From the NCBI GenBank assembly GCA_045593265.1, contig JAZNWH010000131.1, forward strand, positions 9,422 to 73,421: a stretch of DNA of 64,000 nucleotides. Direction: 5' to 3'. Shown here in pieces: positions 4,113-56,173 of the stretch. The stretch comes from Clostridia bacterium. GTDB lineage: Bacteria > Bacillota > Clostridia > RGIG6154. Both the position numbers and the translations under genes were made by a program. Numbering within the stretch: the first letter of the stretch is position 1; each line of letters opens with the position of its first letter. A model generated the notes under the pieces. That model searched no databases. It saw only the letters and a list, made by a program, of their open reading frames with translations, and had not been told where the DNA came from.

Positions 4113-4651
4113 AAAGTGTTGATTAATAAAAAAACGCTAATCTGTGCGTAGTTCACGGATTACTGCTTGTTTTTTTGTGCAGAAGAAAAAAAGTAAAAAA
4201 TCTGCAAGAATTAAAAAATTGTCGTGATTTTTTATCGTTTGAAGCCGAAAAAATGATGCTTAAAATTGGGTGATATATTTGCTAAAGAAATGCGATAATT
4301 TTCTGTTTTTGTGCTTCCTTTATGCACCGACACTGCCTTATATTTCACCAAAAAAATAATTATATCAGATTATAAATATGATACAAGTTATATGTCTTAT
4401 TTTTATAAAAAACATCGATTATATGTATTGCCTTAATTTTGAAATGATATTATAATTCTAATAATTACGATAACATTTTAATACATCTTGCGTAAGATGT
4501 AGTCTGTAGAAATGTTTCTTGATGATTTGGAGTGTATAGTCGATGGTATATACGAATAAAATGAGCCTCCGGGAAAATATTCCTTGGAGGCTCAAACTAT
4601 TGTATCGTAGATAGAATTGTGATATAATAATAGAGAAATTGTGTTTATTAT

Positions 4652-4753
4652 ACGCTCCGCGAAGATTTAATAAGTGCGTACGAAATTTTCCTCACTAGGT
4701 TCGGAAACGCACATGCACAATTATACCAAATTCCTTTGGAATTATGGTATAAT
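4652..4753 (+). ncRNA. Degenerate partial copy (copy C) of the conserved structured leader seen at 6679-6861 and 32999-33191.
   Basis: acgctccgcgaagattta...gtgcgtacgaaattttcctcactaggttcggaaacgcacatg aligns with the P1-3' arm/P2 core of copies A and B. It lies 300 nt upstream of trxB. Confidence 0.25.
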
Positions 4754-4776
4754 GATTTCAAGCAAAGCTTGAAATC

Positions 4777-4937
4777 AATGAATTGCCTTCGGCATGAATT
4801 GAAATCATAAATTTCATGAATTGAGCCTATGGCTCATGAATTGCACCTAACGGTCCATTAAGGCAATTCAATTCATGGAGGATGCCGAGAATTCATGATG
4901 GAACATCAATTCACGACAACATAGTTGCCAATTCATT
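4777..4937. repeat. Array of eight short repeats: four direct (C/T)ATGAATTG copies followed by four inverted CAATTCA(T/C) copies.
   Basis: Direct copies at about 4778, 4794, 4817 and 4838. Inverted copies at about 4864, 4889, 4906 and 4928. Each unit overlaps the palindromes TCATGA and GAATTC. Confidence 0.5.
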
Positions 4938-4988
4938 TTAAATCTTGTCATCCAGATTATACAGCCTTTATATAATTCAATTAAATTA

Positions 4989-5003
4989 TGTGATAAAATC
5001 ACA
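4989..5003 (+). promoter_or_regulatory. Perfect 6-3-6 palindrome TGTGATaaaATCACA, a candidate operator 55 nt upstream of trxB, overlapping a likely -35 and followed by TATAAT at 5018-5023.
   Basis: Exact inverted repeat. The same TGTGAT-N3-ATCACA site occurs upstream of trxA at 8628-8642. Confidence 0.45.
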
Positions 5004-5056
5004 GAAAATAAAAAAACTATAATATATAATAAAACTGACATAGGAAAGGAGCTGAT

Positions 5057-6016
5057 GTGAATATGACAGCTTTGAATAAAGATATAGTTTACGATATGAT
5101 AATAGTTGGTGGAGGTCCGGGAGGATACACATCAGCACTTTATGCTGCAAGAGCCGGATTTAATGTTTTGGTTCTTGAAAAATTTTCAGCAGGCGGACAA
5201 ATGGCGTTGACACATCAAATTGACAATTATCCCGGATTTGAGGATGGAATTGACGGATTCTCGCTTGCTGATAAAATGAAAAAACAGGCGGAACGCTTTG
5301 GTGCAAAAAGTGAAAATTCCGAGGTAATTAAAGTTAATCTTACGGTAAATCCAAAAGAAATAGAAACTGCAAAGGGAACATTTTTATCAAAAACAATCGT
5401 ACTCGCAGCAGGGGCAAACCCAAGAGAGCTTGGTGTTGACAAAGAAAGTGAACTTACAGGACGAGGAGTTGCATACTGTGCCTCCTGTGATGGAATGTTT
5501 TACAGAGGCAAAACTGTTGTTGTGGTTGGTGGAGGAAATACTGCTGCTGCAGATGCAATTCTTCTCAGCCGTATTGCAAAAAAGGTTATTATTGTTCATC
5601 GCAGAGATACCTTGAGAGCAACAAGGATATATCATGAGACTTTAATGAATGCAGAAAATGTGGAGTTTAAATGGGATAGTACGGTTACGGAGCTTCTGCA
5701 TGAAGATAAAATAACAGGGGTTAAGATTAAAAATGTCAAAACAGGAGAAGAAAGTATAATTGATTGTGATGGTGTATTTGTAAGCATAGGCAGAAAGCCT
5801 GCAACTGATTTCCTTGGAGATCAGCCTGAATTGGATGAGAATGGATACATCATTGCAGACGAAACGACAAAGACAAGCATCCCTGGTGTGTATGCCGTTG
5901 GCGATATAAGAACTAAACAGCTACGTCAAGTGGTTACTGCTGTTTCGGATGGTGCAATGGCAGTTCATTCGGCAGAAGAATATCTTGCTGAAGAACATAA
6001 AGGAAGTGAAAAATAA
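5057..6016 (+). CDS. trxB: Thioredoxin-disulfide reductase.
   Basis: GGGPGG FAD motif, redox-active CASCDG, second Rossmann motif VVGGGNTA. The start is ambiguous between GTG 5057 and ATG 5063 (AGGAG at 5047-5051). Confidence 0.85.
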   Translation: MNMTALNKDIVYDMIIVGGGPGGYTSALYAARAGFNVLVLEKFSAGGQMALTHQIDNYPGFEDGIDGFSLADKMKKQAERFGAKSENSEVIKVNLTVNPKEIETAKGTFLSKTIVLAAGANPRELGVDKESELTGRGVAYCASCDGMFYRGKTVVVVGGGNTAAADAILLSRIAKKVIIVHRRDTLRATRIYHETLMNAENVEFKWDSTVTELLHEDKITGVKIKNVKTGEESIIDCDGVFVSIGRKPATDFLGDQPELDENGYIIADETTKTSIPGVYAVGDIRTKQLRQVVTAVSDGAMAVHSAEEYLAEEHKGSEK

Positions 6017-6678
6017 TGCAGTATTTAATATCGTTTCTTGAAGGAATTATCACTTTTATATCGCCTTGCTTACTTCCGATGCTACCCATATACATTTCAT
6101 ATTTTGCAGGCGGAGGCGAAAGAACAACCACAAAAACATTGAACTGTGCTGTCGGCTTTGTAACAGGGTTTACTATTGTTTTTGTAATGCTTGGAGCATT
6201 GGCAGGAACAGTTGGAGGATTCCTTCGTGAATACCAGACAACAGTAAATATCATTTCGGGACTGATTGTGATAATTTTCGGACTGAATTTTCTTGGAGTA
6301 TTTAAGCTGAATATCTTCAAAGGAAATCAGCGCTCTGTTAAAACAGATGATATGGGATTTTTCTCTGCAATGCTTTTGGGAATTATCTTTTCCGTAGGCT
6401 GGACTCCTTGTGTGGGGGCATTTCTTGGCTCTGCATTGATGCTGGCATCTCAGCAAGGTCATATATCAGAGGGAATGCTGATGCTGCTTAGTTATTCCTT
6501 AGGACTTGGCATACCATTTATATTAAGTGCGGTGTTGATTGAATACCTCAAATCGGCATTTAACTGGATTAAGAGAAATTACAAAATCATTAACCTTATA
6601 AGTGGTAGTCTGCTTGTTATAATCGGTATTATGATGGCAACAGGCACACTTGGGCAGCTTTTAAATCTGCTCAGTTAG
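6016..6678 (+). CDS. ccdA: Cytochrome c-type biogenesis / thiol-disulfide transporter CcdA (DsbD beta-domain family).
   Basis: Polytopic membrane protein with the two conserved Cys motifs SPCLLP and WTPCVG. The start overlaps the trxB stop. Confidence 0.8.
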   Translation: MQYLISFLEGIITFISPCLLPMLPIYISYFAGGGERTTTKTLNCAVGFVTGFTIVFVMLGALAGTVGGFLREYQTTVNIISGLIVIIFGLNFLGVFKLNIFKGNQRSVKTDDMGFFSAMLLGIIFSVGWTPCVGAFLGSALMLASQQGHISEGMLMLLSYSLGLGIPFILSAVLIEYLKSAFNWIKRNYKIINLISGSLLVIIGIMMATGTLGQLLNLLS

Positions 6679-6861
6679 GAGGTAACGTGAAAGTTCCTTT
6701 CCCGTTACGCCTCCGGCGGATTTAATTGCCCGTGCGAAAATTTCTTTGCATTTGCAAAGAAACGCACATGGGCGTAATAATCTCTTATCATTCCTTACCA
6801 TGCGGATAAGAGAATTTAATTACTATTTGTGTCGATGTATGGCGGCGGAATGGAGATTACT
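6679..6861 (+). ncRNA. Conserved structured leader RNA (copy A), a candidate cis-regulatory element of unknown class lying between ccdA and the resA-like gene.
   Basis: It is 183 nt and about 80% identical to 32999-33191. P1 is ggaggTAACG...CGTTAcgcctcc. P2 is gcccgtgcg...cgcacatgggc, enclosing a variable hairpin. P3 is tctcttatc...gataagaga, with its loop complementary to the tail just 5' of the SD. It ends with ggcggcggaatGGAGattactATG. Confidence 0.45.
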
Positions 6862-7440
6862 ATGAAAAATAAGAAAACACTAATAATACTTATTCTTGTA
6901 TTTGTTGTTTTGCTCGGTGGTGCGTATATCCTGTACTCTCAGCTTGGTGAGTCGCAGACACCCGATCAGCTATCCATGCAACAACAGGAAAATAATGAAT
7001 CAGGAACAGAGAAGCAAGATAGTCAGAAAACATTAGCACCAGATTTCACAGTTTATGATGCTGACGGAAATGAAGTTAAGCTGCATGACTTTATAGGTAA
7101 GCCAATAGTCCTCAATTTCTGGGCAAGCTGGTGTGGTCCCTGTCAGATGGAAATGCCGGACTTTCACGAAAAATATCTCGAGCTTGGTGATACAATAAAC
7201 TTCCTTATGGTAAATATGACTACCGGACGTGAAACCTTAGAGAGTGCAAAGAATTTTATTGCGGAAAAAGAATACACATTCCCGGTGTTTTATGATATAA
7301 AATCTGATGCTGCTGCAGCATACGGAGCATATTCGCTTCCGACAACATATTTTATTGATGATAGAGGCTATGCTATTGCTCAGGCTACAGGTGCTATTGA
7401 TGGTGAAACTCTTCAGCGTGGAATCGATATGATAAAATAA
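6862..7440 (+). CDS. Membrane-anchored thiol-disulfide oxidoreductase, ResA/TlpA-like extracytoplasmic thioredoxin.
   Basis: N-terminal TM helix then a thioredoxin fold with WASWCGPC. The preferred start is ATG 6862 (GGAGA SD 6 nt upstream). The six-frame ORF starting at 6829 is translated leader sequence. Confidence 0.75.
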   Translation: MKNKKTLIILILVFVVLLGGAYILYSQLGESQTPDQLSMQQQENNESGTEKQDSQKTLAPDFTVYDADGNEVKLHDFIGKPIVLNFWASWCGPCQMEMPDFHEKYLELGDTINFLMVNMTTGRETLESAKNFIAEKEYTFPVFYDIKSDAAAAYGAYSLPTTYFIDDRGYAIAQATGAIDGETLQRGIDMIK

Positions 7441-7566: not shown

Positions 7567-8220
7567 ATGGAATTTCAAAGCTACTTTCCAATATGGGATA
7601 AATTAAATAAAGCAGAGCAAGACCGCATCACAGACAACTTGATTACCAGAAAGGTAACAAAAGGAACTGTAATTCATAACGGCAGTATGGAATGCACAGG
7701 ACTTCTTTTGATAAAAACAGGACAGCTTCGTGCTTATATCCTATCTGATGAAGGCAGAGAAATTACAATCTACCGTCTTTTCGACAGGGATATGTGCTTG
7801 TTTTCAGCCTCTTGTATTATGCGTTCCATTCAGTTTGATATAACAATCGAAGCCGAAAAGGATACCGATTTATGGATTATTCCTGCAGAACTTTACCAGA
7901 GTATTATGAAAGAATCTGCACCCGTTGCCAATTACACAAACGAGCTTATGGCAACAAGATTTTCTGATGTAATGTGGCTGATAGAACAGATTATGTGGAA
8001 GAGTCTTGATAAGCGTCTTGCAGCATTTCTTCTTGAGGAATTTTCTATAGAGGGAACAAAAAAACTAAAGATTACTCACGAAACCATTGCTAATCATCTT
8101 GGCTCTCACCGTGAGGTAATGACGAGAATGCTTAAATATTTCCAAAACGAAGGAATGGTTAAGCTCTCCCGTGGTATGATAGAAATTACAGATTCTGAAA
8201 AACTTGGAAGCTTAAGATAA
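7567..8220 (+). CDS. Crp/Fnr-family transcriptional regulator.
   Basis: N-terminal cNMP-binding beta-barrel, C-terminal HTH (ITHETIANHLGSHREVMTRMLKYFQNEGMV). Start chosen at ATG 7567 with GAGGA RBS. The six-frame ORF extends to 7504. Confidence 0.7.
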   Translation: MEFQSYFPIWDKLNKAEQDRITDNLITRKVTKGTVIHNGSMECTGLLLIKTGQLRAYILSDEGREITIYRLFDRDMCLFSASCIMRSIQFDITIEAEKDTDLWIIPAELYQSIMKESAPVANYTNELMATRFSDVMWLIEQIMWKSLDKRLAAFLLEEFSIEGTKKLKITHETIANHLGSHREVMTRMLKYFQNEGMVKLSRGMIEITDSEKLGSLR

Positions 8221-8642: not shown

Positions 8643-8724
8643 TAAAACACATATAATCCCGTAACAAAATATGACATACTTTAAATAAAGAAAAGGGACA
8701 TTCAATTTTGGGCAAAAAATAAGA

Positions 8725-8901
8725 AATGGCTCAAACGCAGTGTTTGAGCCAAAATAAAGCAGGACTCCGAAGAATCGACAGATTTTTTGGGAAGAAGAGG
8801 AACAGTGAAGCAAGTGATTGATTTTTTGTATAGAAAAACAAAGCAAACGAAACTTATTCCGACGAGGCAGGGGCAGAGCGAAAAGAGTCATATCCACAAT
8901 A
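8725..8901. repeat. R1 repeat copy 1, about 177 bp and about 98% identical to 36635-36809. It contains a minus-strand intrinsic terminator hairpin at 8727-8751 and may be an sRNA or UTR module.
   Basis: The two copies differ by one 3-bp indel and one substitution. The hairpin tggctcaaac-gcagt-gtttgagcca is followed on the minus strand by a T-run. Confidence 0.6.
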
Positions 8902-8960
8902 ACATGAAAACTATGAGTAATAAGGTATTTGTAGGCATATTTTTCCATTTATTATTCATT

Positions 8961-9059
8961 ATAGAGGATATATCCGGACACACAACATCGCAGATAACCG
9001 AGATGTACTATGTAAAGAAGGACACCTCAAGGCTGAACGGAATCACAGATGGGTTTGAG
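8961..9059 (+). repeat. R2 repeat copy a, about 99 bp, encoding the peptide IEDISGHTTSQITEMYYVKKDTSRLNGITDGFE. It lies within a possible small ORF at 8904..9152 with an N-terminal hydrophobic segment.
   Basis: Second copy at 10673-10771. The 11 nucleotide differences are all synonymous in this frame. Confidence 0.5.
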
Positions 9060-9077
9060 TTATGGAAATATGCGGCA

Positions 9078-10133: not shown

Positions 10134-10742
10134 TTATAAATTTTTTCGTATTTGAGATGGTGAAAGACCACATTCATTTTTAAAAACATTTGAAAAATAT
10201 GCAATATCCTCGAAGCCACATTCAAGTGCTATATCGGAGATTGAAAGATTTGTAGTTTCTAGAAGCTTTCGGGCTTCTTCACAACGGAGTTGACGAAGGT
10301 AATCAAAAACAGTGATTTTGGTATGTTCTTTAAAAAGCTTAGAAAAGTAAAATTTACTGAAGCCGGCAGCGGCCGCGACCTCGTCAAGAGTAAGCTTTTC
10401 CTTATAATGTTCTCTTATATATTTTATTCCTTTTTTAATATTTTCGTTAACATATGTATCTTCTTGTACCGGTCTTTGATAGTTTTTGTATAAATAAGCT
10501 ATCAGTGTAAGTGTTGCGGCACGAAGAGAAACCTCGCATTTTTCAAGATATTCCTTTTCAACAGATTCAAAATAATCAAATAAATGTTCATCTTCAATAC
10601 ATTCGCGAAATTCAAATTTCCCGGGTGCGAGTCCCGATTCGCTTAAAAATTCTTTGCTGACTTTAAAACAATATAGAGGATATATCCGGACATACCACAT
10701 CGCAGATAACTGAGATGTACTATGTAAAGAAAGATACATCAA
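10134..10742 (-). pseudogene. N-terminally truncated AraC-family regulator remnant. Its apparent 5' end runs into R2 repeat copy b.
   Basis: The C-terminal AraC HTH is complete, but only about 90 aa of the sensor domain remain, against about 180 aa in neighbouring AraC paralogs. The first 23 codons are antisense to the R2 repeat. Confidence 0.45.
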
Positions 10743-10771
10743 GATTAAATGGAATCACAGATGGATTCGAG
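10673..10771 (+). repeat. R2 repeat copy b, encoding the same peptide as copy a with only synonymous differences. It lacks the upstream hydrophobic segment and a start codon.
   Basis: Codon-level comparison with 8961-9059 shows 11 synonymous and 0 nonsynonymous differences. A stop follows immediately after FEI. Confidence 0.5.
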
Positions 10772-10905
10772 ATATAATTAACGAACACAGGAACTTTACA
10801 AAAAATTCTAAAAAGTGAGCCAACCTCAAAAAGTTAGACAAAAATCTAAAGATTGAGAGGTCGGCTTATTATATGTTTTAATTCGGAGTTTTTTTATATT
10901 ATCAT

Positions 10906-11971: not shown

Positions 11972-14900
11972 ATGAAGAATAGAGCAAAAAGAGTTATGAG
12001 CCTTTTGATTTTGCTTACGATGATTGTTTCCTGTTTTACGGCAACAACTACTTTTGCGGCTCAAACTTATGGTGTTGACAATTTAAACAGTAAGAAAGGC
12101 GATTTGTATATTGGCTTTCTTGGTGGCTCAATAACTCAAGGATCAGGTGCGACATTGCTTGAAAACAGATATTCATCATTAATAACTAAAGAATTTTTTG
12201 GCAGTAAATTTGCTCCCGGAAAAGTTACGGAAATTAATGCTGCAGTCGGCGGAACAGGCACCGAGTATGGTCATATGAGAATGTATAAAGATTTAAGACT
12301 CGGAACTGAGGAATCTCCCGATGTTGTTTTTGTTGAATTTGCGGTAAACGACAGTTCTGTAAGTACACCATCACGACTTAAGAACATGGAATCAATTGTA
12401 AGACAACTTATTTCGCAACCTAAAATTCCTGCAATTATCTTTGTTTACACATTTTCGAGCGACTCACGATATATTGATGGTGCTGATGCCAAATCTGTAG
12501 AAGGTGCTATAGAGGATTTTCACAAGATAGCTGAAAACTACGGTATTTATGAAATTAACTTAACTGAATATATCGGTAAGGGAATAGAAGAAGGAAAATG
12601 GCTTTGGAATTCTTCGGGTCAGGAAAATAATTTATCTATAGATACGGCACATCCCAACGATTTCGGTTACAGAGTTTATGCAGATTACATTAAAGAATGT
12701 CTTGAAAAGGATTACGATAAAGCTTTTAGTAAGATAGACCCAATGACCAAGCCTTACGGTAATGACCTTTTCGGTGTTATAGAAGAAATATATTTTGGTG
12801 ATGACAGAGTTGTCAAAAGTAAAGAATGGAAACATAAGAAAAGAGTGGAAGGCACTGAAAACCATTTTTACAAAGGATTCTATACAAATCAGGATTCACT
12901 GGATGCAACCTTTGAGTTTGAATTTGAAGGCCGCGGTGTAGGTATCAATGTAACAAGAGATTATAATAATGCATATGTTAACTGGTCAGTAACCAAAAAA
13001 TCAACCGGAGAAGTTGTTGCTTCGTCAACAATAAGATATCCGTCTACCATTCAGCGCAATGATAACGGAATAGGTTTCTTACTTGCAACAGGACTACCAA
13101 AGGATACTTACATATTTAAGTGTACTCTTTCAGAGAGTGAACATGCAATAAACAGAGGCGGAAACGGAAAATATATGGCTATTGCCAATATTGTTGTAGA
13201 AAAGGATTTACATTCAAATCTTCCGGGACCTGACGGAAATGTAATTGCACCTGATGTAGATTCTTCCGGAGAAACAGAGAATATTCCACAGGAAGAAGTG
13301 AAGAATGAAAGTCTTGCAATATCAGGTGATAAAACAATTCTTTATGTAGCAAAGGATGGTAAGGATACCAACAATGGTTCGATAGATTCACCTTTTGCTA
13401 CTCTTGAAAAGGCGAGAGATACAATACGCTCACTTAAAAAGAGTGGTAATCTCGGTGAAGGTGGAGCTGTTGTTTATATAAGAGGCGGAGAATATTTAGT
13501 ACAGAAAGAATTGTTGCTTACTGAAGAGGATTCGGGAGCTGAAAATGCGCCCATTGTTTACAGAAATTATCCTGATGAGAAAGTTGAGTTTATGGGTGCG
13601 GTCGATATGAATACCGAACTGTTTAAACGTGTAACGGATGAAAGCGTATTAAATAAGATTGTCGATACTAAGGCAAGAGATAAGGTAGTGGCAGTTGATT
13701 TATTTGCATTGGGATACACGGAACTTCCTGAGCAGTATTGGCCTGGTGCATATTCCTACATTCAGAATATGCCGTCAATTACAGGTAGAGAAAAGCCGAC
13801 AGCAATAGCATCAGAACTTATTGTAAACGGTCAGGCACAAACAATTGCAAGGTATCCGAATAATGATTATATGTATATTGAATCTGTTATCGAACCGGGT
13901 GCAATGCCGAGAAACTGGAGTAACGATGTAAAAGGAAGCGACGATTATGTTAAGCCCGAGGACAGAGTACCTACACCTTTTACTTTTACGGTAGCTGATG
14001 AAAGAATTAAATACTGGACAGATGCAAAGGATGCACTTCTTTACGGTTATTTCTATTATTCATGGGCAGATCAGACGGTGCCTTTAGCATCAGTTGATGT
14101 TTCAAAGCATGCAATTACTTCAAAATATCCCAGCGTATACACTGTACTTGCAGATCAGTATTTCTACATATACAATTTGTTAGAGGAAATTGATATTCCG
14201 GGTGAATATTTTGTAGACAGAGAGAACGGTATTTTATACCTTTATCCTCCTGAAAGTGGCATCAGTTCAGCAATATATACTACTCTTGAGGATTATATGT
14301 TTAACCTTCAGGGAGCTGAATATATCAGCATAAAGGGTATTGATATGAGCTATATGAGAAGCGGTGCAATTTTCTCAATGGGTGTTAAAGGTGTTGAAAT
14401 CGCGGATTGTGAAATCAGCTATACAGGTTCTAAAGCGGTAACAGTTTCCGGTTATGACAATAAAGTATATGATTGCTATATTCACGATGTTGAAGGCGGT
14501 GTTGTGCTTGATGGCGGCGACAGAAAAAATCTGATTCCCGGTAATAATTATGTTGAAAACTGCGAATTTGAAAATTGTTCAAGAATTTCAAGTACATATA
14601 TGCCTGCCGTAACATTATCAAACATAGGTAACAGGGTAGTTAATAATAAAATCCATGGTTCACCTCATTTGCTTATTCAGTTCAGCGGTAATGACCATAT
14701 TATAGGATATAATGAAATTTACGATGCCTGTCAGCATACCGATGATGCAGGTGCTATGTATGCGGGTAGAGCAGTTTCACAGCAGGGAAACAGAATAATT
14801 AACAATTATTTCCACGATATTGAATCTGAAGAACTCGGTAATAATGGTGTATCGGGATTATATTTAGATGACTACTGGAGTTCCGCAGATATTTCGGGGA

Positions 14901-15859
14901 ATGTATTTGAAAACATTTCAGGTTACGGTGTTGCTTCGAGCGGTAACTTTACTAAGATAAACAACAATATTTTTGTTAATGTTCGTAGTGGTGCAGTTCG
15001 TGCAAAGGGCTCGGATACTTATAATCAATCTGTATCAGAAGTATTGAATGAATTTAATGTTTTGTGGAATGATGAACTTGTAAGATTTGATTGCTACAGT
15101 GATAAATGGATTAAAAAGTATCCTCAGATATTGGAGCTTAAGGACGAAAACGGAAGATTCCGACTTGGTTATAAGATGGAAATTATGAACAATATCCTCT
15201 ATAACTCATCAGACAATGTTGTCGAAAATGATGTAAAACGTGACGGAACGGTTGAAAATAATTTATTAATTACATCTGACCCGGGATTTTACGATGTGGC
15301 AAATAGAAATTATCTTCTAAAGCCGGATTCGGAAATTTATACAAAGATTCCGGATTTCCATCCTATCGCATTTACAAGAATGGGACAGTATTCATCCAGA
15401 GCTATGTCAAGAATCAAAAATGCTTATGTTTTATCAGCAGAAAGTCCATATGTGTTCAATAATGGTGAAAAAATTAAAGGCGATAAGAATGGTATAACTG
15501 TTATTGACGGTAAAGCCTATGTTCCACTTCGTAAAGGCGTTGAAGCTGTTGGCGGAAGCATTCAGTTTGATGAAGCGACAAGTGAGATAAGTATTACTAC
15601 AGATACAAAGCTCGTAAGCTTTACAGATGGTGAAAAGTCAAAGGTAAGCTCAAACGGAACGGAATATACACTTGTAAATCCTATTGTAAATAAGGAATAC
15701 ACAAACTATATAAGTATTACAGACCTTGCAGCTTTATTTGAAAAGCAGTTAACTGAATACGAGGATATATTTGTAATAAGTGATGTTGAAAATCTATTTA
15801 CCAAAACGGTTGACGACGGACTTTTAAGATATATTCAATCACAGCTTACTATATATTAA
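11972..15859 (+). CDS. Secreted multidomain protein of 1295 aa: signal peptide, SGNH/GDSL esterase domain, right-handed parallel beta-helix (pectin-lyase-fold) domain, and a C-terminal Cu-amine-oxidase-N-like domain.
   Basis: Signal peptide MKNRAKRVMSLLILLTMIVSCFTATTTFAAQ. GGSITQG and EFAVNDS esterase blocks. The beta-helix core (NNKIHGSPHLLIQFSGNDHIIGYNEIYDACQHTDDAGAMYAGR) is paralogous to 16041, 53382 and 59540. The C-terminal about 150 aa is shared with the 53382 protein (GLLRYIxxQLTIY). Confidence 0.7.
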   Translation: MKNRAKRVMSLLILLTMIVSCFTATTTFAAQTYGVDNLNSKKGDLYIGFLGGSITQGSGATLLENRYSSLITKEFFGSKFAPGKVTEINAAVGGTGTEYGHMRMYKDLRLGTEESPDVVFVEFAVNDSSVSTPSRLKNMESIVRQLISQPKIPAIIFVYTFSSDSRYIDGADAKSVEGAIEDFHKIAENYGIYEINLTEYIGKGIEEGKWLWNSSGQENNLSIDTAHPNDFGYRVYADYIKECLEKDYDKAFSKIDPMTKPYGNDLFGVIEEIYFGDDRVVKSKEWKHKKRVEGTENHFYKGFYTNQDSLDATFEFEFEGRGVGINVTRDYNNAYVNWSVTKKSTGEVVASSTIRYPSTIQRNDNGIGFLLATGLPKDTYIFKCTLSESEHAINRGGNGKYMAIANIVVEKDLHSNLPGPDGNVIAPDVDSSGETENIPQEEVKNESLAISGDKTILYVAKDGKDTNNGSIDSPFATLEKARDTIRSLKKSGNLGEGGAVVYIRGGEYLVQKELLLTEEDSGAENAPIVYRNYPDEKVEFMGAVDMNTELFKRVTDESVLNKIVDTKARDKVVAVDLFALGYTELPEQYWPGAYSYIQNMPSITGREKPTAIASELIVNGQAQTIARYPNNDYMYIESVIEPGAMPRNWSNDVKGSDDYVKPEDRVPTPFTFTVADERIKYWTDAKDALLYGYFYYSWADQTVPLASVDVSKHAITSKYPSVYTVLADQYFYIYNLLEEIDIPGEYFVDRENGILYLYPPESGISSAIYTTLEDYMFNLQGAEYISIKGIDMSYMRSGAIFSMGVKGVEIADCEISYTGSKAVTVSGYDNKVYDCYIHDVEGGVVLDGGDRKNLIPGNNYVENCEFENCSRISSTYMPAVTLSNIGNRVVNNKIHGSPHLLIQFSGNDHIIGYNEIYDACQHTDDAGAMYAGRAVSQQGNRIINNYFHDIESEELGNNGVSGLYLDDYWSSADISGNVFENISGYGVASSGNFTKINNNIFVNVRSGAVRAKGSDTYNQSVSEVLNEFNVLWNDELVRFDCYSDKWIKKYPQILELKDENGRFRLGYKMEIMNNILYNSSDNVVENDVKRDGTVENNLLITSDPGFYDVANRNYLLKPDSEIYTKIPDFHPIAFTRMGQYSSRAMSRIKNAYVLSAESPYVFNNGEKIKGDKNGITVIDGKAYVPLRKGVEAVGGSIQFDEATSEISITTDTKLVSFTDGEKSKVSSNGTEYTLVNPIVNKEYTNYISITDLAALFEKQLTEYEDIFVISDVENLFTKTVDDGLLRYIQSQLTIY

Positions 15860-15906
15860 TTGCTTGTATCCGTGTATATTTAATATACACAGTTTACTCA
15901 TAAAAC

Positions 15907-15986
15907 TGCCTTGTTTGTTTTTTAAAAAAATAATATAACATCTCTTTCCAAATTATATGTTTTTTGCAAACAAGGCACCCCCTTTT
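15907..15986 (+). terminator. Putative terminator: an 11-bp stem (tgccttgtttg/caaacaaggca) with a large loop, followed by CCCCCTTTTT.
   Basis: Inverted repeat plus T-run downstream of the 11972 stop. The unusually long loop makes this uncertain. Confidence 0.3.
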
Positions 15987-16040
15987 TAAAAAAACTTTTA
16001 TTTTAAAAGTAATTATATATAAAAGAAAGGATTTGAAATT

Positions 16041-19000
16041 ATGAAAAACATTAAAAAGATAATTGGCATAATTCTTACAATTTGTATGGTTTTGCAAATA
16101 CTTCCCGTTTTTGCAAACGAAACACAAACAAGCGAAGCGGAATTTAATTATATTATCAATGATAATTTTTCCGCTGAAAGCTTTGATGGATGGAGTCTTG
16201 TGAAGGATACAGGGTATAGCTCCCTTGCAGACGATTTGGTTTCTTTGATACCTGTTGAAGGTGAAGAAGGAAACTATGCGCTTAACTATACTTCTGTTGA
16301 CAGCAAAACAGCAAGATATACTCATATTACAAGAACATTTGGTGAATCGGTTGCAATTTCAGGGGATAATGATATTGTAATCGAAACAAGAATGAAAACC
16401 ACAGGTACTAACCGTGCTTTCTTAAAGTATAATCTTGTAACATACCCTAAGTTTGAAAACGAATGGAATTATAACTGGGGAACATTAGTTGGTACTGACG
16501 GAAGTGATGTATTTGTACTAAATGGCTGGAAGGCAAATGAAACAACGCTTTTGTACGGATATCCTACAGAAGTTAAAACCAGTGTAAGTGATTTTGCTGA
16601 TAAATGGCATAATTACAAAATTGTGATTAAAGGCGGCGAAGTTGATACATCAACACATACCGCAGTTGGCAACACAATGGACATTATCGTAACCGATGAT
16701 GACGGAACAATTGTTAAAGAAAGTTACGGTCTTAGTATGGATTTTCCAAATGCTTCAAGCTGGGAAAATGTAAATGATAAAGGAAATGCAAATATAACAG
16801 ATTATAATTGGGTTGAAGATGCATTAAATACTCTGGACTTCAGATTAAGAGATGCAGAAACACTTACTGTTGACTATGTAAGAGTTTACCAGCAGTTTGA
16901 CGCAGATATGTCAGTTGATGAATTTATTCTTAATAATGAAGATGTAGTTATTAATATTGATATTGTAAAAGGTGATGCGTTATTTGAAAATTCTTTCGCT
17001 TTATATGATGCCTACGGTGATATTGTTGATACATTAAACTCTATTGATGAAACAAATAAAGTTGTAACACTTTCACCGATTGACAGTCTTACAGTAGGTG
17101 AAAAATATACAGTTAAGCTTAATAAATCGGTAGTTCCCGGTAACTATAATTTTGTAGAAGATGAAGTAAGCTTCATTGCATCCGATGTAAAATATATACT
17201 TTATGATGAATTCGGACAGGATGATTTAAATGGCTGGGAGCTTGTTAAGGATTCCGGCAAAACAACAAGCAGTACAACTGTACTTACATCACAGGAAATT
17301 CCTGAAGAAGCAGGTAACTATGCACTTGAATATATATCGGCTGCAACTCCTGAGGCAAACTGGAGATATAATCATATAACCAGAAAACTTTCATCATCTG
17401 TTCCTTTTGCAAGTGATAAAGAGCTTGTAATAGAAACAAGAATGAAATCAACAGGTACAGGACGTGTATATTTAAAGTACAATCTTGAAACATATCCATC
17501 TATTGTTAATGAATGGAACTATTGGTGGGGCGCACTTGTAGGTTCGGATACGGACAGATTCTATATTCCGAACGGATGGGAGCCAAAAAACGATGTTTAT
17601 TTGTCAAATCCTGTAAACACTGCATGGGATGAAGATGAAGTGCTGACAGGAACAGGTAATAAATGGTATACATATAAATTTGTAATTCATGGCGGAGAAA
17701 TTAATAACGAAACACATACTGCAACAGGAAACACAATGGATGTTACCATTACAGATAACGATGGTGCGGTTGTCACAGCTTTGAAAAATATGAGCATGGA
17801 TTTCCCGGACAATTCAACGTGGTCTCATTCAGGTTCTGTAAATGCCGAAAATGTAAACTGGGTTGAAGATGCATTAAATTCACTTGATTTCAGACTCAGA
17901 GCCCAAGAAACACTTACTGTTGACTATATAAAGGTTTATGAGCAGATTTCTGCAGATATGAGCGTTGATGCGTTTATTACTCCGAATGAAGAAATAAAAG
18001 TTACTGTTGATATAGAAAATGGTAATTCAGTTTTAAAAGATGCTTTCATATTATATGATGAGAATGATAATGTAATTGAAACATCAAATACAATCGACAG
18101 TACAAATAAGATTGTAACAATTGTGCCTGATGATAACCTTACAATGGGTAAAGAATACACAGTTAAGCTTGACACAACAAAAGTTCCTTCAAACTATGTT
18201 TTTGCAACAACTGAAAAAACTTTTAAAGTATCTGACATAAAGTACATCATGTATGATGAATTTGCAAACAACGATTTTGACGGATGGGAAGCAAAGGTGT
18301 TTAGTTCAAAATCATCTTCAAACACGCTTTCAACCGAGCCATATGAAGAAAATTCTGACAACTATGTACTTAAATACTCATCAGCAGATGCAACAAATTC
18401 CTATTACGGATATTTATCAAAATCAATTAATCCTGTTACATTCCCTACAGAAAAAGACCTTGTAATTGAAACTAAAGTTAAGGATACAAAGGGTTCGGCA
18501 GGTAAGGGTAGATTCTTCATTAAATATAATCTTGACGGCACAGCATATTCTGCAAATGAATGGCAGCACAGCTGGGGTGAATTTATCTGTGTAGATGAAG
18601 GTCTTGTATATGTTAATAATGGCTGGAAAGTACTTGCTTCAGGTTTAAACGGCACTAATTTAAAGTCTACCGGTTTGTCGGTAGCAGGTGATTGGCATAC
18701 ATATAAAATTGTGATTCATGGTGGAGAAACCAAAGACGAGGCAAAGGCAGACTACATTATATACAATTCAAACGGTGTTGAAGTAGCAAGACATGAAGGT
18801 ATAACACTTGATTTTCCGGACAACTCAGATTGGCCTAATGTAGGTACAGACACAGGTTCAACAGGTGCAAATTGGGTTGAAGGTGTTCTTAACTCTGTTG
18901 ATTTCAGATTAAGAAATGCAAATGAACTTTATATTGACTATGTAAAGGTTTATGAAAAGAAAGATGCTTCAGTTTTAGTAGATTGTAAAGATATTTTAGG

Positions 19001-22000
19001 TAATGCTGAAATTAATGCGTATATCAAAACCGGTACAGGAGCAATTGCTAATCCTGAAAAATATGTTGCTCTTTATAATGGAACAACAAAAGTTGATGCA
19101 AATATAACCTGTGAAGAAGGAACAAACAAGATTACGATTGATCCAACCGAAAAGCTTGAAATTGGTAAATATACCGTTAAATTTGATGTACAGGGCATTT
19201 TAAACGCAGGATATACAATTGATGGTCCTTCTGAATTTGATGTTAATGTTATATCTTCAACAAACGTAAATGAAACTTTTGAAGACATAACAACCGCCGA
19301 CCTTTCTGATAACGGTTGGTATTTCAGAAACGATGGACTTACAAATGTTACAAGAAATGCTGAAATTGTAACAGAAGATGGTAATAAATTCCTTAGAATC
19401 AGCGTAGACGGTGATTTGGAATTACTTGAAGGTAAGCTTGTTGCTTATTCCAAAGACCTTACAAATGCAAAATTTGTGAGAGATATGGAAAATTCAACTG
19501 TTATGGAGCTTAAGTTAAGAACAAATCTTAATACTGTAAGAAAGTATTTCAAATACAACTATCCGACAACAGGAAACATAAGCACCAATGCATATAATGA
19601 GCATGGCTGGAATACAAGACTCGGAGCGGTTATGGATGCAGGCAACATTGCCATTACATACGGAGACTACAGCTATAATGAAAGTGGCAGAATGCAGGGT
19701 AAAACTGAAAATATTGCCTCATATGAAACAAATAAATGGTATACAGTTAAAACAGTTTTTGACAATGCACAAGGTAAGGCAACAAGCTACATCTACGATG
19801 AAGAAGGGGTTCTTGTAGGCAGTGCGGAAGATAAAGCACTTTCAGCATGGTGGTTTAATTACTACGATTATGACAAGACAACACCTTTGGTTATGCATAC
19901 AATAGAAGACCTTACATTCCAGTTCAGACCGGAATCACTAAATGTTACGGTAGTAAATGAACAGTTTGATGTTGACGATATTAAGCTTTACAATATGAAA
20001 GTTTGTGATGAAAGTGTAAATGCGGTATTTAAGTCAAATGATGAAGTTGTTGATGTAATTGGCCGTGAAGTAACATCAATCGTTCCTGAATTTACCATTC
20101 AGACAGAAAATGACCAGACAAAAGATTATTATATAATAGCTGCTGTATACGAAAAGGATAAGCTTTTAACAAGTCAGTTTGTACCTGTTACAATTAACGG
20201 CAACGATACAATTACATTAGATGCAATTACTGTTGACCCACAGAATACAGATATTGAAGTAAGAGCATATATATGGGACAAAAATTTTGCTCCTGTATTA
20301 TCGACACCTACAATTATTAAACCTTTAGTTTGTGAGGTTTACCTTGCAACTGACGGAAATGATTTAAACACGGGGGAAGCAACTTCCCCCGTTGCTACTC
20401 TCAACAGAGCAATTGAAATTGTAAACGATGCTCCTGATGAAGGGTATATTACATCTAAAATTATAGTTAAAGACGGTAATTATGAGCTTACGGGAGAAAC
20501 AATTGAAATCGGCTCAAATGTTAAAACAGACAGTTTAGTTATTCAGGCAGAGAATGAAGCAAAATTTGTTAACGGTGTTGTTTTTAATATAAGTGATGCA
20601 ATCGGGGCTCCTGAGACAATTAAAGCAAGACTTGTTAATCAGGATGTTAAAGATAATCTTTATATGATTGATTTGACAACAAAGGTAGACCTTGAAGATA
20701 TTCCCGGTGTAAGCCTTCCCGGACCTTATTCATATTCAGCAAATGGTCTTAATACTCCGAATGGGGAATTTGTAATTGATGAAAGCAGAATTGCTACCTG
20801 TGAAATGTTCTTTGATAATAAACCTATGACTTTAGCAAGATATCCTGATAGTGAATATGAGGTTTTAGAAGAAGGAAAGTTCAGTTATGATGCAAATTCC
20901 CGTACACGCTACTGGATGGATGATGTTATTGGAACTGATGACTATATTGCTTTGGATGACCGTGTTACCGATGGATTTACCCTTACTCTTGACAGAGCAA
21001 AAAACTGGGGAAATGCCGACCAGGCACTTATGTTTGGTTACTGGTATTATGACTGGGCAACACAGACGGTTCCTGTAGCATCAATCGACACAACAAATGG
21101 TGTTATAACTTCTAAATATCCAAGTCATTATGGTTTGTATAAAACTCAGAGATATTATGTATATAATCTTTTAGAAGAAATCACACAGCCCAACGAGTAT
21201 TTCATCGACAGAACAACAGGCATTTTGTATTTTTACAAATCACCTGATGCACAACCTGATGATGAAATTATAATGTCCCTTTACGAAAATAAAATTTTTG
21301 ATATAAGAGCATCAAATGTTACAATAGACGGTCTTACATTTACTGCATCGAGAGATGCTGCAATTTATTCAAAGGGCAATAATGTTGTAATTAAAAACTG
21401 TGAAATATCAAATACAGCAGGTGTTGCTGTAGAATTGGACGGAACGAACTCAGTTCTTGAATATTGTAATATTCACGATGTTAATGGTGGTATAAAATTA
21501 TATGGCGGAAATCTCAATACTCTTACTCCCGGAAACAATAAGGTTTTAAATAATACTATTACAAATTTCTCTCGTCTTAGCAAAACCTACACGGATGCCA
21601 TTGAGGTTACAGGTGTAGGTAATAAAGCATCCCACAACAAGATTTCAGATGGTGAACATCTGGCAATGAGATTTTCGGGTGTTGATAACGAAATAAGCTA
21701 CAACGAAATTTTCAATGTATTAAAGGAAACAGATGAGGCAGGTGCAATTTACGCAGGACGTTCATGGACTTCAAGAGACAATGTTGTTAAATATAACTAT
21801 TTCCATGATCTTATTTCAACTGAAGAAACCACAATGCCTATTTGTGGAATTATGCTCGATGACCATTTCTCAGGTGTTGAAATTTTCGGTAACATATTCT
21901 CAAATGTTGCAGGTTATGGTATAAAGGGTACAGGAAGAGATTTGGTAATATCAAATAATATTTTCGAAAAATGCACCAGTGGAGCAGTTCGTTTAACAGA

Positions 22001-22370: not shown

Positions 22371-22407
22371 TACAACATTTATATACTAAACTTCAAGGAG
22401 GGTTAAT

Positions 22408-26481: not shown

Positions 26482-26484
26482 CAG

Positions 26485-31924: not shown

Positions 31925-31956
31925 GTTATTAACCTAACGCTATGGATGGTGATAAT

Positions 31957-32844
31957 ATGGATATTCTTACAAAAGAAAATTTTTTCAGACCAAATGAAAA
32001 TATACATATACAGTTATCAAATGAATATCCCGATTATATAGGTAAATGGCATACACACAATTACATTGAAGTAGTTTATATTATTTCTGGAAGTGCAGTT
32101 CACGAAATAGACGGAAAAAGATACAATGTCAAACGCGGAGATTTGTGTATAATTAATATGCACACACCTCATGTTTTCTATATTCACGAGGATTCCAAAG
32201 AGACATTTTCCTGTTACGATCTTATGTTTACACCTGAATTTTTCGATGAATCACTGGACGGATATAAGGCGCTGGAATCTCTTAATAAATCTTATATGTT
32301 TTATTCTTTGTTCGGTGAAAGCAGAGAAATTGTTCCTTTTTACAGTGTATCGGAAAGTGATTTTACTATGTTTGGTGAATTGTTCAATAAGATTTACCAT
32401 GAACACCGAAAGCAGGAAAAAGGATATACCGAAATAATCCGTGCATATCTTTTACAATTAATTATAACAATATTTCGTATTGACAGCAGGGAAAACGAAA
32501 ATTCCAAAAAGCATAAAGTAAATCACGTTGTAAGCTATATAAACGATTATATAAATGCAAATTACAGCCAACATATATCTGTAAATAAGCTTGCAAAAGA
32601 GGTGTTTTTGCATCCCGATTATCTTGGACGTATTTTTCGCGAAGCTACCGGAATGAACATAAGTACAATGATACAAAAGGTAAGAGTTGAAAATGCCTGT
32701 CATTTTCTTTCAACAACCAACCTTAACATTTCGGATATAGCTCATAAGTGTGGCTTTGACGATACAAAATTTTTCTATACGGTTTTCAAAAAAAGAATGG
32801 GCGTTTTGCCGGGAGAGTACAGAAAAAATATACAGACTAAATAA
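31957..32844 (+). CDS. AraC-family transcriptional regulator (cupin sensor domain plus HTH).
   Basis: C-terminal AraC HTH (ISTMIQKVRVENACHFLSTTNLNISDIAHKCGFDDTKFFYTVFKKRMGVLPGEYRK). Start placed at ATG 31957 downstream of the promoter. The six-frame ORF starts at 31942. Confidence 0.7.
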   Translation: MDILTKENFFRPNENIHIQLSNEYPDYIGKWHTHNYIEVVYIISGSAVHEIDGKRYNVKRGDLCIINMHTPHVFYIHEDSKETFSCYDLMFTPEFFDESLDGYKALESLNKSYMFYSLFGESREIVPFYSVSESDFTMFGELFNKIYHEHRKQEKGYTEIIRAYLLQLIITIFRIDSRENENSKKHKVNHVVSYINDYINANYSQHISVNKLAKEVFLHPDYLGRIFREATGMNISTMIQKVRVENACHFLSTTNLNISDIAHKCGFDDTKFFYTVFKKRMGVLPGEYRKNIQTK

Positions 32845-32998: not shown

Positions 32999-33191
32999 AG
33001 AGGAGAGTAACGTGAAAGTTCCTTTCCCGTTATTGCCTCCGGCGGATTTAAAAAGCCCGTGCGAAATTTTCCTCACACTCGTTCGGGAACGCACATGGGC
33101 AAAAAATCTCTTATCATTCCTTGCCATACGGATAAGAGAAATTTTAAAACTATTATTTATGCCGACGTATGGCGGCGGAATGGAGATTTAT
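32999..33191 (+). ncRNA. Conserved structured leader RNA (copy B), immediately upstream of an M24-like/PIG-L/epimerase operon.
   Basis: Same P1/P2/P3 architecture and identical 3' tail (gtatggcggcggaatGGAGatttatATG) as copy A. Covariation in the P2 inner hairpin and in the loop/tail pairing (ccauacg/cguaugg versus ccaugcg/uguaugg). Confidence 0.45.
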
Positions 33192-36473: not shown

Positions 36474-36634
36474 ATAACGAAACTGACAGAATTGCTAAAA
36501 ATAAAATGATGCTTTTTGATGATGTAACAGACGGAATGGTTAAGAATGTATGCAGCCAGACGCGAAATTGATACTTATTTTGGGCAATTTTAATTGACAC
36601 AGAGGACCACGAACCTTAGAATTAACAACACAAA

Positions 36635-36809
36635 AAATGGCTCAAACGCAGTGTTTGAGCCAAAATAAAGCAGGACTCCGAAGAATCGACAGATTTTTTG
36701 GGAAGAAGAACAGTGAAGCAAGTGATTGATTTTTTGTATAGAAAAACAAAGCAAACGAAACTTATTCCGACGAGGCAGGGGCAGAGCGAAAAGAGTCATA
36801 TACACAATA
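36635..36809. repeat. R1 repeat copy 2. Its minus-strand terminator hairpin at 36638-36662 lies just downstream of the minus-strand AraC gene.
   Basis: Near-identical to 8725-8901. The hairpin is followed by TTTTTTGTG on the minus strand. Confidence 0.6.
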
Positions 36810-36830
36810 TGCTTTGAATGTGCATATATA

Positions 36831-56105: not shown

Positions 56106-56173
56106 TGTATTTAAATGAATCGTAAAGATTCATCTGAATAAAAAATTTATTAATGAAAGGGATGTTTTGAATC

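Follow-up and report, generated by a model that had tools for sequence, protein, structure and literature searches.

What are the two similar, strongly folded segments that stand directly in front of unrelated genes in this stretch of 64,000 nucleotides (nt) from a Clostridia bacterium (contig JAZNWH010000131.1), called the window below? One of them, copy A, precedes a ResA-like thioredoxin gene, the second, copy B, precedes a gene for an M24 peptidase-like protein, and a third site, copy C, lies upstream of trxB. An earlier, sequence-only reading had taken them for an unclassified riboswitch or protein-binding attenuator. We propose that A and B are probably non-coding, non-autonomous interspersed insertion elements of Oscillospiraceae-type Clostridia, the RNA of which gates the element's own Shine-Dalgarno sequence (SD). 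The structured and SD-occluding character that had been recognised was retained, but as both window copies were absent at the same loci in relatives, the attenuator gave way to an interspersed element.

A (6677-6864) and B (33001-33194) were 82.6% identical over 195 columns (blastn, E 8e-49), in line with the roughly 80% first estimated. The third site (4664-4715) matched B at 83% over 53 nt (blastn, E 3e-9), with only a central hairpin, P2, in common. A pattern for this hairpin, CGTRCGAAANTTT, 8-30 nt, AACGCACATG, matched exactly three times in the window, at A, B and C, and not at all in 100 shuffles. A covariance model of the element core, named R1, scored 72.4 bits at A (over 6716-6774), 63.0 bits at B and 59.6 bits at C; the next-best match in the window was the antisense of A at 21.8 bits, and all others were below 12 bits. 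The site upstream of trxB had thus been recognised correctly, but it had been called degenerate, whereas it is a complete member of the family (class 3, described below) and has not decayed.

Filled and empty sites

Copy A is intercistronic and starts 4 nt past the ccdA stop codon. A metagenome scan with TrxB gave a relative, L116, with the same gene order, amino acid (aa) identities of 95% for TrxB, 96% for CcdA, 88% for ResA and 95% for Crp, and a DNA identity of about 92%. Window positions 4974-6682 aligned with L116 3418-5126, and 6859-8300 aligned with L116 5128-6562 (blastn), so that 176 nt (6683-6858) were missing in L116; an R1 search of L116 gave no match. The junction reads ...ctcagTTAGGAGGcACTATGaaaaat in L116 and ...ctcagTTAGGAGG[TAACGTG...GGAATGGAGATT]ACTATGaaaaat in the window, with the element in brackets. 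The empty site is thus TTAGGAGGcACTATG, while A is flanked by TTAGGAGG on the left and by ACTATG on the right. In a more distant relative, L117, the SD at the resA locus is followed directly by ATG. The flanks and extents of A and B, all on the + strand, are as follows.

6677..6682, +: native SD of resA (AGGAGG), the left flank of A; the same TTAGGAGG stands in the element-free L116, there followed by cACTATG; in the predicted minimum free energy (MFE) fold it pairs with the element CCUCC
6683..6861, +: copy A, class 1, of which 6683-6858 are missing in L116 (blastn)
33000..33007, +: native SD of the M24 gene, GAGGAGAG, the left flank of B; at the orthologous, element-free loci the SD is followed by ATG within 6-8 nt
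33008..33191, +: copy B, class 1, with hairpins P1 (33008-33032), P2 (33055-33100) and P3 (33107-33139) and a tail (33166-33191)
33182-33188, +: the element's SD in B, with the M24 start codon at 33192

The origin of the last 3 nt before the resA ATG (6859-6861) is ambiguous. At the B locus, three syntenic contexts (six loci, 88-93% aa identity) had an araC-M24 gap of 116-148 nt compared to 347 nt in the window, and in a fourth context (L202/L203, 86% aa identity) the M24 gene was found 5 nt behind a different gene. The M24 orthologues at eight fetched loci, representing four distinct proteins, all had a native SD 6-8 nt before the start, and none had the element. The third comparison concerned a copy in locus L106, which at 91% is the closest relative of A. 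The site there reads ...GGGAGGAAGG[TAACGCG...GGAATGGAGATTTTT]ATG, and three ylqF orthologues were element-free with a 33-nt lepB-ylqF gap (...GGGGAAagctgaATG). At all three loci (ccdA-resA, araC-M24 and lepB-ylqF) the element fills the space that separates the native SD from the ATG, and the empty sites have the native SD and then ATG within 4-8 nt.

Absence in relatives would also follow if an ancestral leader had been deleted there rather than inserted in the window lineage. GGAG at both ends could mediate such a deletion, and the tandem arrays described below resemble unequal crossing-over at GGAG. However, all compared relatives were element-free (two for A, four orthologues at eight loci for B and three for L106), a GGAG-GGAG deletion would leave GGAGATTACTATG where GGAGGCACTATG was observed, and the downstream genes are different in every genome. 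We consider a deletion very unlikely.

The ends of the element carry no terminal inverted repeats (the left end is TAACGTGAAAG and the reverse complement of the right end is AATCTCCATTCC), and there was no target-site duplication at the three compared loci. Among copies, the right GGAGAU was constant and the left SD varied. The left flank was always an SD-like G-rich motif (GGAGG, GGAGA, GGGGA and the like), 0-5 nt from TAACG. Dispersed copies with unrelated flanks were found within single genomes, as with A and B, with at least 27 class-2 copies in one assembly, SVJN (SIG436), and with L104 and L114, two loci of the same genome that had only the element in common (198 nt at 95.5%). The mean identity between copies was 0.87 within genomes and 0.78 between genomes, and copies were 78-97% identical over their full length, loops included. 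In one orthologous pair at rimM (L059/L067), both loci kept the element, and copies are thus also inherited vertically. A second pair of loci, L022 and L100, was considered as a rearrangement at the element and rejected, because the homology just stops at a contig end.

One family in three architectures

The core pattern matched at least 115 stretches in a one-genome-per-species collection, with 62 assemblies among the matches listed. The carriers were nearly all uncultured gut or rumen Clostridia or Oscillospiraceae, Ructibacterium and Congzhengia among them, genera for which the NCBI taxonomy has the named species R. gallinarum and C. minquanensis. Viral contigs, plasmids and phage records held no copies, and an R1 search of 720 kilobases of fetched loci added few diverged ones. 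When 129 cores were read with their flanks, 69 belonged to class 1, 38 to class 2 and six to class 3, while 16 were variants; the P2 hairpin was the only stretch common to all three architectures. Class 1 starts behind an SD-like GGAG with hairpin P1 (UAACGUGAAAG-UUC-CUUUCaCGUUA), gCCUCCGGCGG, the joiner AUUUAAUU and P2, and continues with AAUCUCUUAUCAUUCCUUGCCnnnCGGAUAAGAGA, the conserved linker UACUAUUUGUGCCGAnG, the tail nnnGGCGGCGGAAUGGAGAUUnnn and AUG. Class 2 consists of an AT-rich hairpin, P2 and a long irregular hairpin that ends in GCGGCGAAGCCGCUUUGUUC. Class 3 has a hairpin that begins in TGGTATAAT, then often GCCUCCGGCGG, then P2, and finally another hairpin ending in TGGTATAAT. The class 3 architecture, with TGGTATAAT at both ends, was seen in eight assemblies.

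Several copies departed from these layouts. A divergent class-1 subfamily (L070, L101) had the same three-part architecture with other helix sequences. The class-1 variant L020 (4806-5002) lacked P1, so that GAAGGAGG abuts the joiner directly, and three class-1 copies in assembly CAAENE (L001, L055, L087) lacked the GCCUCCGGCGG segment, yet stood behind G-rich SD-like flanks, which argues against CCUCC as a targeting requirement. Head-to-tail arrays of two or three units were found in class 1 (L010, L013, L080, L089, L093) and class 3 (L039, L048, L053), and in them the tail GGAG of one unit is the 5' strand of P1 in the next. We rejected the arrays as evidence of re-insertion, because their junctions match the array's own left flank, as does GGAGCUA in L080, which points to unequal crossing-over at GGAG.

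The element had been called unclassified, and the comparison with Rfam agreed. Rfam 15 gave no match at gathering score in the whole window, four chance-level small nucleolar RNA/small RNA matches at E<=10 in 4400-7100, none of them on the elements, and no match on any element of classes 1-3 in 18 loci. Ordinary Rfam matches off the elements were a group II intron domain (L010 347-411), a T-box leader (L079 2580-2857) and an L20 leader (L048 5182-5312).

Class 1 was placed at start codons with great regularity. Among 61 distinct copies, which also form the alignment used for the structure analysis, GGAG stood 6 nt before the start codon in 51, and the element's SD is GGAGAU. With tandem units, two wrongly called starts and copies truncated at the end of a locus left out, a real open reading frame (ORF) of at least 58 aa, mostly of more than 130 aa, begins at the start codon. 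The products, with names read from N-termini and lengths except for the window genes and ylqF, which were named by a tool or their source, included an aldo-keto reductase, glgC, a ROK kinase, gatB, a glycosyltransferase, the CCA-adding enzyme and SNF symporters; Hsp33, aroC, hisB, a ribonucleotide reductase activase, rimM, cdsA and a PP2C phosphatase; and mscL, rarA, ahcY, copA, ylqF and uracil-DNA glycosylase. When 56 downstream proteins were compared by blastp, only one symporter pair, at 30% identity, and a few repeat-domain pairs were related. Thus, the class-1 element is not a pathway-specific or gene-specific riboswitch, and the thiol-redox setting of copy A, in which the sequence-only reading had seen an association, is a coincidence, because the genes downstream of 56 class-1 copies are unrelated. 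That reading had also considered a generic repeat with a scatter that ignores gene starts. Half of this applies: the element is indeed generic and interspersed, whereas its class 1 keeps to gene starts with single-nucleotide regularity.

Another account of this placement is a leader-peptide attenuator, in which the native SD and a GUG in P1 would start an upstream peptide, MKVPFPL..., whose translation would open the structure. Copy A has AGGAGG-UAAC-GUG, the frame from GTG 33012 in P1 of B is open for 60 codons through the element and in frame with M24 (33012-34541), and GUG, AUG or UUG stands at the P1 position in 48/61 copies. In the way of this account, 11/61 copies have GCG, GGG, GAG or CUU there, the peptide is conserved neither in length nor in sequence (12, 29 or 44 aa, or read-through), and the GUG lies inside a covarying stem. 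Furthermore, the M24 homologues all start at the downstream ATG, and ATG 33192 is the M24 start, since every homologue is 447-449 aa long. We rejected the leader peptide, as the start codon is not conserved and the ORF varies in length and sequence, and hold it to be highly improbable. A gene caller could still report a 509-aa protein from GTG 33012, and ORFs extended through element tails (PTYGGGMEI...) cluster artificially.

The other two classes were found beside other signals. The 23 class-2 copies aligned from one assembly had sharp ends (CTTTATAGG...GCCGCTTTGTTC) and unrelated flanks. On the left they adjoin the T-run of an intrinsic terminator that belongs to the upstream gene, and their right end is itself terminator-like, as judged from folds and consensus scans. 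Going by crude ORF calls, most class-2 copies follow a gene of the same orientation on its 3' side, and class-3 copies are found between divergent genes. In one class-2 copy, L031 (core 7736-7791), about 110 hairpin-rich nt (AGTGGCAACCAACGACTCGTCG...) are nested just past the core, possibly another small mobile element. For class 3, the window provides copy C with these parts.

4620..4753, +: copy C, class 3, upstream of trxB, beginning after or within the TGATATAAT box (4620-4628)
4624-4652, +: 5' hairpin of C
4674-4718, +: P2 core of C
4719-4753, +: 3' hairpin of C, ending in TGGTATAAT (4745-4753)

At copy C, TTGTAT-N17-TG(A/G)TATAAT is common to the window and L116, and the homology stops right past the box, TGGTATAAT. 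The consensus promoter scan made no call at this TTGTAT-N17-TGATATAAT site, and the promoter reading of class 3 is therefore one from sequence. As judged from these flanks, each class appears to adjoin the 3' side of a host signal (-10 box, SD or terminator) and to end in a like signal; the versions of the family each restore the expression signal beside which they insert.

Between copy C and trxB (4760-4900) there are at least six copies of (C)ATGAATTG in small hairpins (gccttcggc, gagcctatggctc), and L116 had no DNA similar to these repeats. Where the window (4629-4973) has copy C and the ATGAATTG repeats, L116 (2982-3365, minus strand) has a small ORF, MCDNNKFYICEHCGN..., between the common TGGTATAAT box and trxB, which we take by eye to resemble desulfoferrodoxin/superoxide reductase; L117 has a similar ORF in the other orientation.

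The genes around A are trxB (5057-6016), ccdA (DsbD_TM, 6016-6678) and the redoxin/ResA-like gene (6862-7440), followed by a Crp-family regulator and a thioredoxin; an exact-sequence look-up of the ResA-like protein gave no record. Copy B is preceded by a promoter-like AT-rich gap behind an AraC regulator (31942-32844), and is followed by the M24 peptidase-like gene (33192-34541), a PIG-L deacetylase and a xylose-isomerase-like TIM-barrel gene, which confirmed that the genes downstream of A and B are unrelated. The window also holds a second, unrelated interspersed repeat of about 185 nt (8722-8904 and 36632-36814, 96-98% identical) that starts with a terminator-like hairpin, GGCTCAAACGCAGTGTTTGAGCC, with the thioredoxin gene as the neighbour of one copy and an AraC gene as that of the other. 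A 107-nt direct repeat with 87% identity (8957-9063 and 10669-10775) is found near AraC-type genes, one of which is truncated (10134-10742, helix-turn-helix domains only). Very large + strand ORFs (1295, 2109, 1357, 897, 907, 1119 and 704 aa) lie in 11972-29178 and 53382-64000 and contain many DNA repeats, both internal and in common with one another; the one that was scanned had GDSL lipase, beta-helix and Cu_amine_oxidN1 domains.

Two competing pairings that both covary

The MFE was -63.3 kcal/mol for A (z -4.6) and -62.1 kcal/mol for B (z -4.0) compared to shuffled controls. The reverse strands of both copies folded well too, with a z of -5.35 for the minus strand of A. The parts of copy A, all on the + strand, are as follows.

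6683..6707, +: hairpin P1, UAACGUGAAAG-UUC-CUUUCCCGUUA; 91% of cells paired and 5/11 pairs double-changed among the 61 copies
6708..6727, +: CGCCUCCGGCGG, anti-SD-like or a possible mini-hairpin (P1b), and the A/U-rich joiner AUUUAAUU; kept in classes 1 and 3
6728..6773, +: P2 core, GCCC-GUGCG-AAAA-UUUC[variable hairpin]GAAA-CGCAC-AU-GGGC; the module common to the three classes, with covarying outer and tip pairs
6774..6803, +: 5' strand of the SD-sequestering long helix, GUAAUAAUCUC..CAUUCC..ACCAUGC; partner 6837-6861, helices 4-6 93-98% paired, 10 double-changed pairs
6781..6813, +: local hairpin P3, UCUCUUAUC-15 nt-GAUAAGAGA; competes with the SD for UCUC, 97.7% of cells paired
6814..6836, +: conserved linker AUUUAAUUACUAUUUGUGUCGAU, which may pair with the tail (P4) once P3 has formed
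6837..6861, +: tail GUAUGGCGGCGGAAUGGAGAUUACU with the element's own SD, GGAGAU, at 6852-6857; near-invariant among copies, with the resA start codon at 6862-6864

The features of the fold given in the sequence-only reading were present, namely P1, P2 and its hypervariable tip, P3, and a P3 loop complementary to the tail. In the 61-copy alignment, RNAalifold gave P2 and a long-range helix between the segment 3' of P2 and the tail, with 15/32 pairs double-changed. This helix, 5'-UAAUAAUCUC..CAUUCC..GCCAUAC with GUAUGGC..GGAAUG.GAGAUUAUUA-3', takes in the SD, the spacer and the start-codon edge, and is thus longer than the loop-tail pairing first noted. When P1, P2, the P2 tip and the long helix were counted as one explicit structure (OFF), 92% of cells were paired and 24 pairs, in 245 cells, were changed on both sides. 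None of 500 shuffles scored as high, and slid registers gave 38-50% pairing, which supports the earlier proposal that this pairing occludes the SD. The top of the helix varies as GCCAUAC/GUAUGGC, GCCCUGC/GCAGGGC and GCUCCGC/GCGGAGC, and the bottom as UAAU/AUUA, UAAA/UUUA and UUUU/AAAA. The compensatory-type change that had been seen between A and B turned out to be a wobble and an A.C mismatch; true covariation was found only in the 61-copy alignment.

The UCUC segment that P3 takes is also the partner of the SD. Three pairs of P3 covary, with variants such as UUUCAU/AUGAAA and UUGUC/GAACAA. As both P3 and the long helix covary, two mutually exclusive pairings are maintained. With P3 enforced, a linker-tail pairing, P4, had 88-92% of cells paired in register compared to at most 58% in slid registers, included 4-5 conserved U.G pairs and is plausible on this count. 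The OFF fold had a predicted energy of -63.3 kcal/mol in A and -61.4 in B compared to -60.6 and -52.6 with P3 enforced, and was thus more stable by 2.7 kcal/mol in A and 8.8 kcal/mol in B, while the transcript prefix that precedes synthesis of the tail is predicted to fold P3. P3 showed a strand signal, with 17 G.U against 6 A.C. P2 (GCCC/GGGC and GUGCG/CGCAC, with a 3' AU bulge and a 5' AAAU loop) is fully Watson-Crick, and a G.U pair in P2 was accordingly dropped as strand evidence. The mini-hairpin P1b (GCC-UCC-GGC) was a further candidate, with weak support.

Several observations speak against a mobile element that switches its own SD. Filled and empty sites were compared at three loci. 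It is ambiguous there where exactly the junctions fall, the element seems to have taken the place of the native spacer rather than to have interrupted it, and DNA differences to the relatives amount to 8-24%. The window holds no transposase, recombinase or reverse transcriptase that we could find, and clustering of 378 flanking ORFs, the neighbours of 129 copies, gave no recurrent gene family; the top cluster was an artefact of ORFs that read through the element tail (PTYGGGMEI). With no recurring neighbour gene, the case for mobility comes from the presence/absence comparisons alone. A search of all loci for orphan half-sites of an autonomous parent, with cargo splitting the core, gave only truncated or mutated copies. 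The long retention in L059/L067 also fits a domesticated regulatory role. Regarding the fold, the sample was drawn by an exact core pattern, and the invariance of the core is thus partly by construction; changes in P4 were one-sided only, with no double compensatory change; and A.C mismatches outnumbered G.U in the OFF helix (31 vs 17) and P1 (16 vs 3), so that these helices favour the sense RNA neither over DNA nor over the opposite strand. Finally, the predicted OFF state is the more stable one although the element precedes essential genes, which leaves two options: an energy model that misleads, or a switch that is in the ON state most of the time in vivo.

Some of these points would be expected of purely selfish DNA, in which the hairpins and the long helix would serve single-stranded DNA excision and integration of the IS200/IS605 or REP-like type, and the RNA fold would be a by-product, tolerated because the SD is usable. 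The missing inverted repeats and target duplication, the clean absence in relatives, a single conserved imperfect GC-rich hairpin with bulged bases and the A.C mismatches, which in P1 and the OFF helix are no rarer than G.U, are in keeping with this, as is the well-folding minus strand of A. So is the strict orientation, with the sense strand on the G-rich strand: the GC skew of the window + strand is +0.15, and nearly all window genes are on the + strand. By textbook reasoning the G-rich strand, and with it the element's sense strand, would be the lagging-strand template, but this is confounded with gene orientation. In contrast, no HUH or other transposase was seen in the window or among the neighbours of 129 copies, the G.U pairs in P3 and P4 favour the sense strand, and the SD-to-ATG spacing is held at 6 nt. 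DNA mechanics alone would also not easily account for the covariation that runs through the SD, spacer and start edge (columns 129-131 with 226-228). We regard purely selfish DNA as rather unlikely.

The same covariation could be read as that of a genuine riboswitch or protein-responsive leader for a global signal, with P2 and the joiner as the sensor and a regulon that grew by duplication. The SD helix of class 1 and the terminator-like helix of class 2 would then be alternative platforms, and this is partly compatible with an insertion element that has been domesticated. The core is indeed common to translation-type and terminator-type 3' modules, two exclusive pairings each covary, and the 5' strand of the SD helix begins 1-4 nt past P2. 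L059 and L067 keep an element that is about 97% identical, differences counted by eye, compared to 93.9% for the whole locus, and tandem units, as in the five class-1 arrays, occur in some riboswitches. However, the downstream genes have no pathway in common, the element is absent from three loci in close relatives, and there is no Rfam family or candidate ligand. Class 2 often lies between convergent genes, by crude ORF calls, with nothing downstream to regulate. As a rule, true riboswitch paralogues conserve only their core, whereas here the 78-97% identity extends over the full length, loops included. We therefore consider a leader for a global signal unlikely, and return to the insertion element.

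A possible mechanism and comparable systems

The class-1 element sits between the native SD and the start codon, leaving the native SD upstream, where it could pair with the element CCUCC as the outer part of P1, and supplies the replacement SD, GGAGAU, 6 nt before the ATG. The mRNA would then fold P1, P2 and one of the two exclusive arrangements. OFF would be the long-range helix of about 23-26 base pairs, with the new SD, the spacer and the start-codon edge buried in it. In the ON or leaky state, the 3' arm of P3, GAUAAGAGA, would take the anti-SD UCUC from the SD, probably together with the weaker, U.G-rich P4. Since P3 could form before the tail is transcribed, translation would probably be allowed kinetically, with the new SD free or weakly paired in P4, until rearrangement into the long helix stops it. 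The balance could be tuned by whatever stabilises one of the states, and P2, which abuts the long helix, would be the obvious place for binding. We infer from these folds an RNA switch that modulates translation, and suggest that a factor may act via P2. By analogy, the long helix of class 2 would include the U-tract of its terminator. In classes 2 and 3 the common core continues into another 3' module, which is terminator-like in class 2 and bears a -10 box in class 3.

The presence/absence pattern suggests that the element is actively mobile. HUH single-strand transposition or site-specific recombination would fit better than a DDE-type MITE (miniature transposable element with inverted repeats), because there are no inverted repeats or target duplication, the orientation is strict, the empty sites are clean, a single GC-rich hairpin is bulged and the left flank resembles the right end. 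A bolder and doubtful extension is that of a mobile riboregulator, in which one sensor, P2 and the joiner, for one factor or ligand is fused to interchangeable SD, terminator or promoter-proximal modules. If so, transposition would recruit arbitrary genes, essential ones included, into a common post-transcriptional regulon.

If the proposed insertion element is correct, the SD-start spacer, which holds the most sensitive nucleotides of a gene, tolerates an insertion in uncultured gut and rumen Oscillospiraceae, because the element has a ribosome-binding site of its own to replace the native one, set in a conserved RNA fold with two states. It would also explain "leaders" of about 180 nt before unrelated genes and spuriously extended ORFs in annotation, offer a route by which regulatory RNA modules spread by insertion, and represent a natural, portable and insulated translation-initiation cassette for synthetic biology, in which the element could serve as a portable translation switch. 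In comparative searches for riboswitches, the element would be a strong false positive, because covariation is combined with a position in the 5' untranslated region.

The nearest known kinds are modular structured repeats between bacterial genes (Correia, BOX, ERIC, REP/BIME) and the PATEs derived from IS200/IS605, and at the RNA level the platforms of riboswitches that sequester an SD. Compared with known systems, the element differs from a DDE-type MITE in lacking inverted repeats and target duplication, while it is like insertion elements in its presence/absence at collinear orthologous sites at three loci and in its dispersed copies within genomes. A group I or II intron or an IStron was rejected, since there was no Intron_gpI or Intron_gpII match on the elements and removal leaves an SD with a 0-3 nt spacer to the ATG. 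With the SD platforms of translational riboswitches and with RNA thermometers it has in common the anti-SD, SD and anti-anti-SD logic, two folds and an upstream sensor-like domain; like a riboswitch, it combines a structured domain, P1 and P2 being kept, with exclusive pairings. Unlike riboswitch platforms, it has no coherent gene set, as the 56 downstream proteins lack the single-pathway association, no candidate ligand, near-identity over the full length and insertion polymorphism. A helix of about 23-26 base pairs is far too stable for an RNA thermometer. MIRUs are tandem units of 40-100 base pairs with small ORFs for translational coupling. The element is like them in lying between operon genes in sense orientation and touching stop or start signals, as copy A does behind the ccdA stop, but unlike them it has no conserved ORF and a large conserved RNA fold.

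PATEs, derived from IS200/IS605, and REP/RAYT elements are families of HUH Y1 single-strand DNA transposition. The element resembles them in its lack of inverted repeats and target duplication, strict orientation, seamless empty sites and bulged imperfect hairpin. As in PATEs, the left flank resembles the element's own right end: GGAG on the left and GGAGAU on the right, a T-run and ...CUUUGUUC, TATAAT and TATAAT. Unlike PATE and REP elements, it has one conserved hairpin, P2, rather than similar hairpins at both ends, and compared to the fixed 4-5 nt target of PATEs its left motif is variable in sequence and in distance from TAACG, with no duplication. No TnpA, TnpB or RAYT/HUH Y1 gene was found in the window or beside 129 copies, with whole genomes not searched.

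Correia/NEMIS of Neisseria, the pneumococcal BOX A-B-C, the enterobacterial ERIC/IRU and the E. coli REP/BIME repeats can supply promoters or terminators or alter the fate of an mRNA. Like them, the element is short, non-coding, multi-copy, transcribed with its neighbours and folded into stable stem-loops, and it has a modular or mosaic build, here a common core with exchangeable flanks. It is set apart from these families, by their descriptions and not by a comparison of sequences, in having no terminal inverted repeats and no target-site duplication, and in its three context-matched versions on one core. We know of no Correia, BOX, ERIC or REP case with single-nucleotide SD-ATG placement and a replacement SD inside a covarying switch, and the literature that we searched held no description of an element inserting between SD and start codon. 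A general review (PMC3184786) serves as background here. Compared to known structured repeats, the unusual traits of the element are a start placement regular to the single nucleotide, a built-in covarying SD switch and sister versions matched to promoters and terminators.

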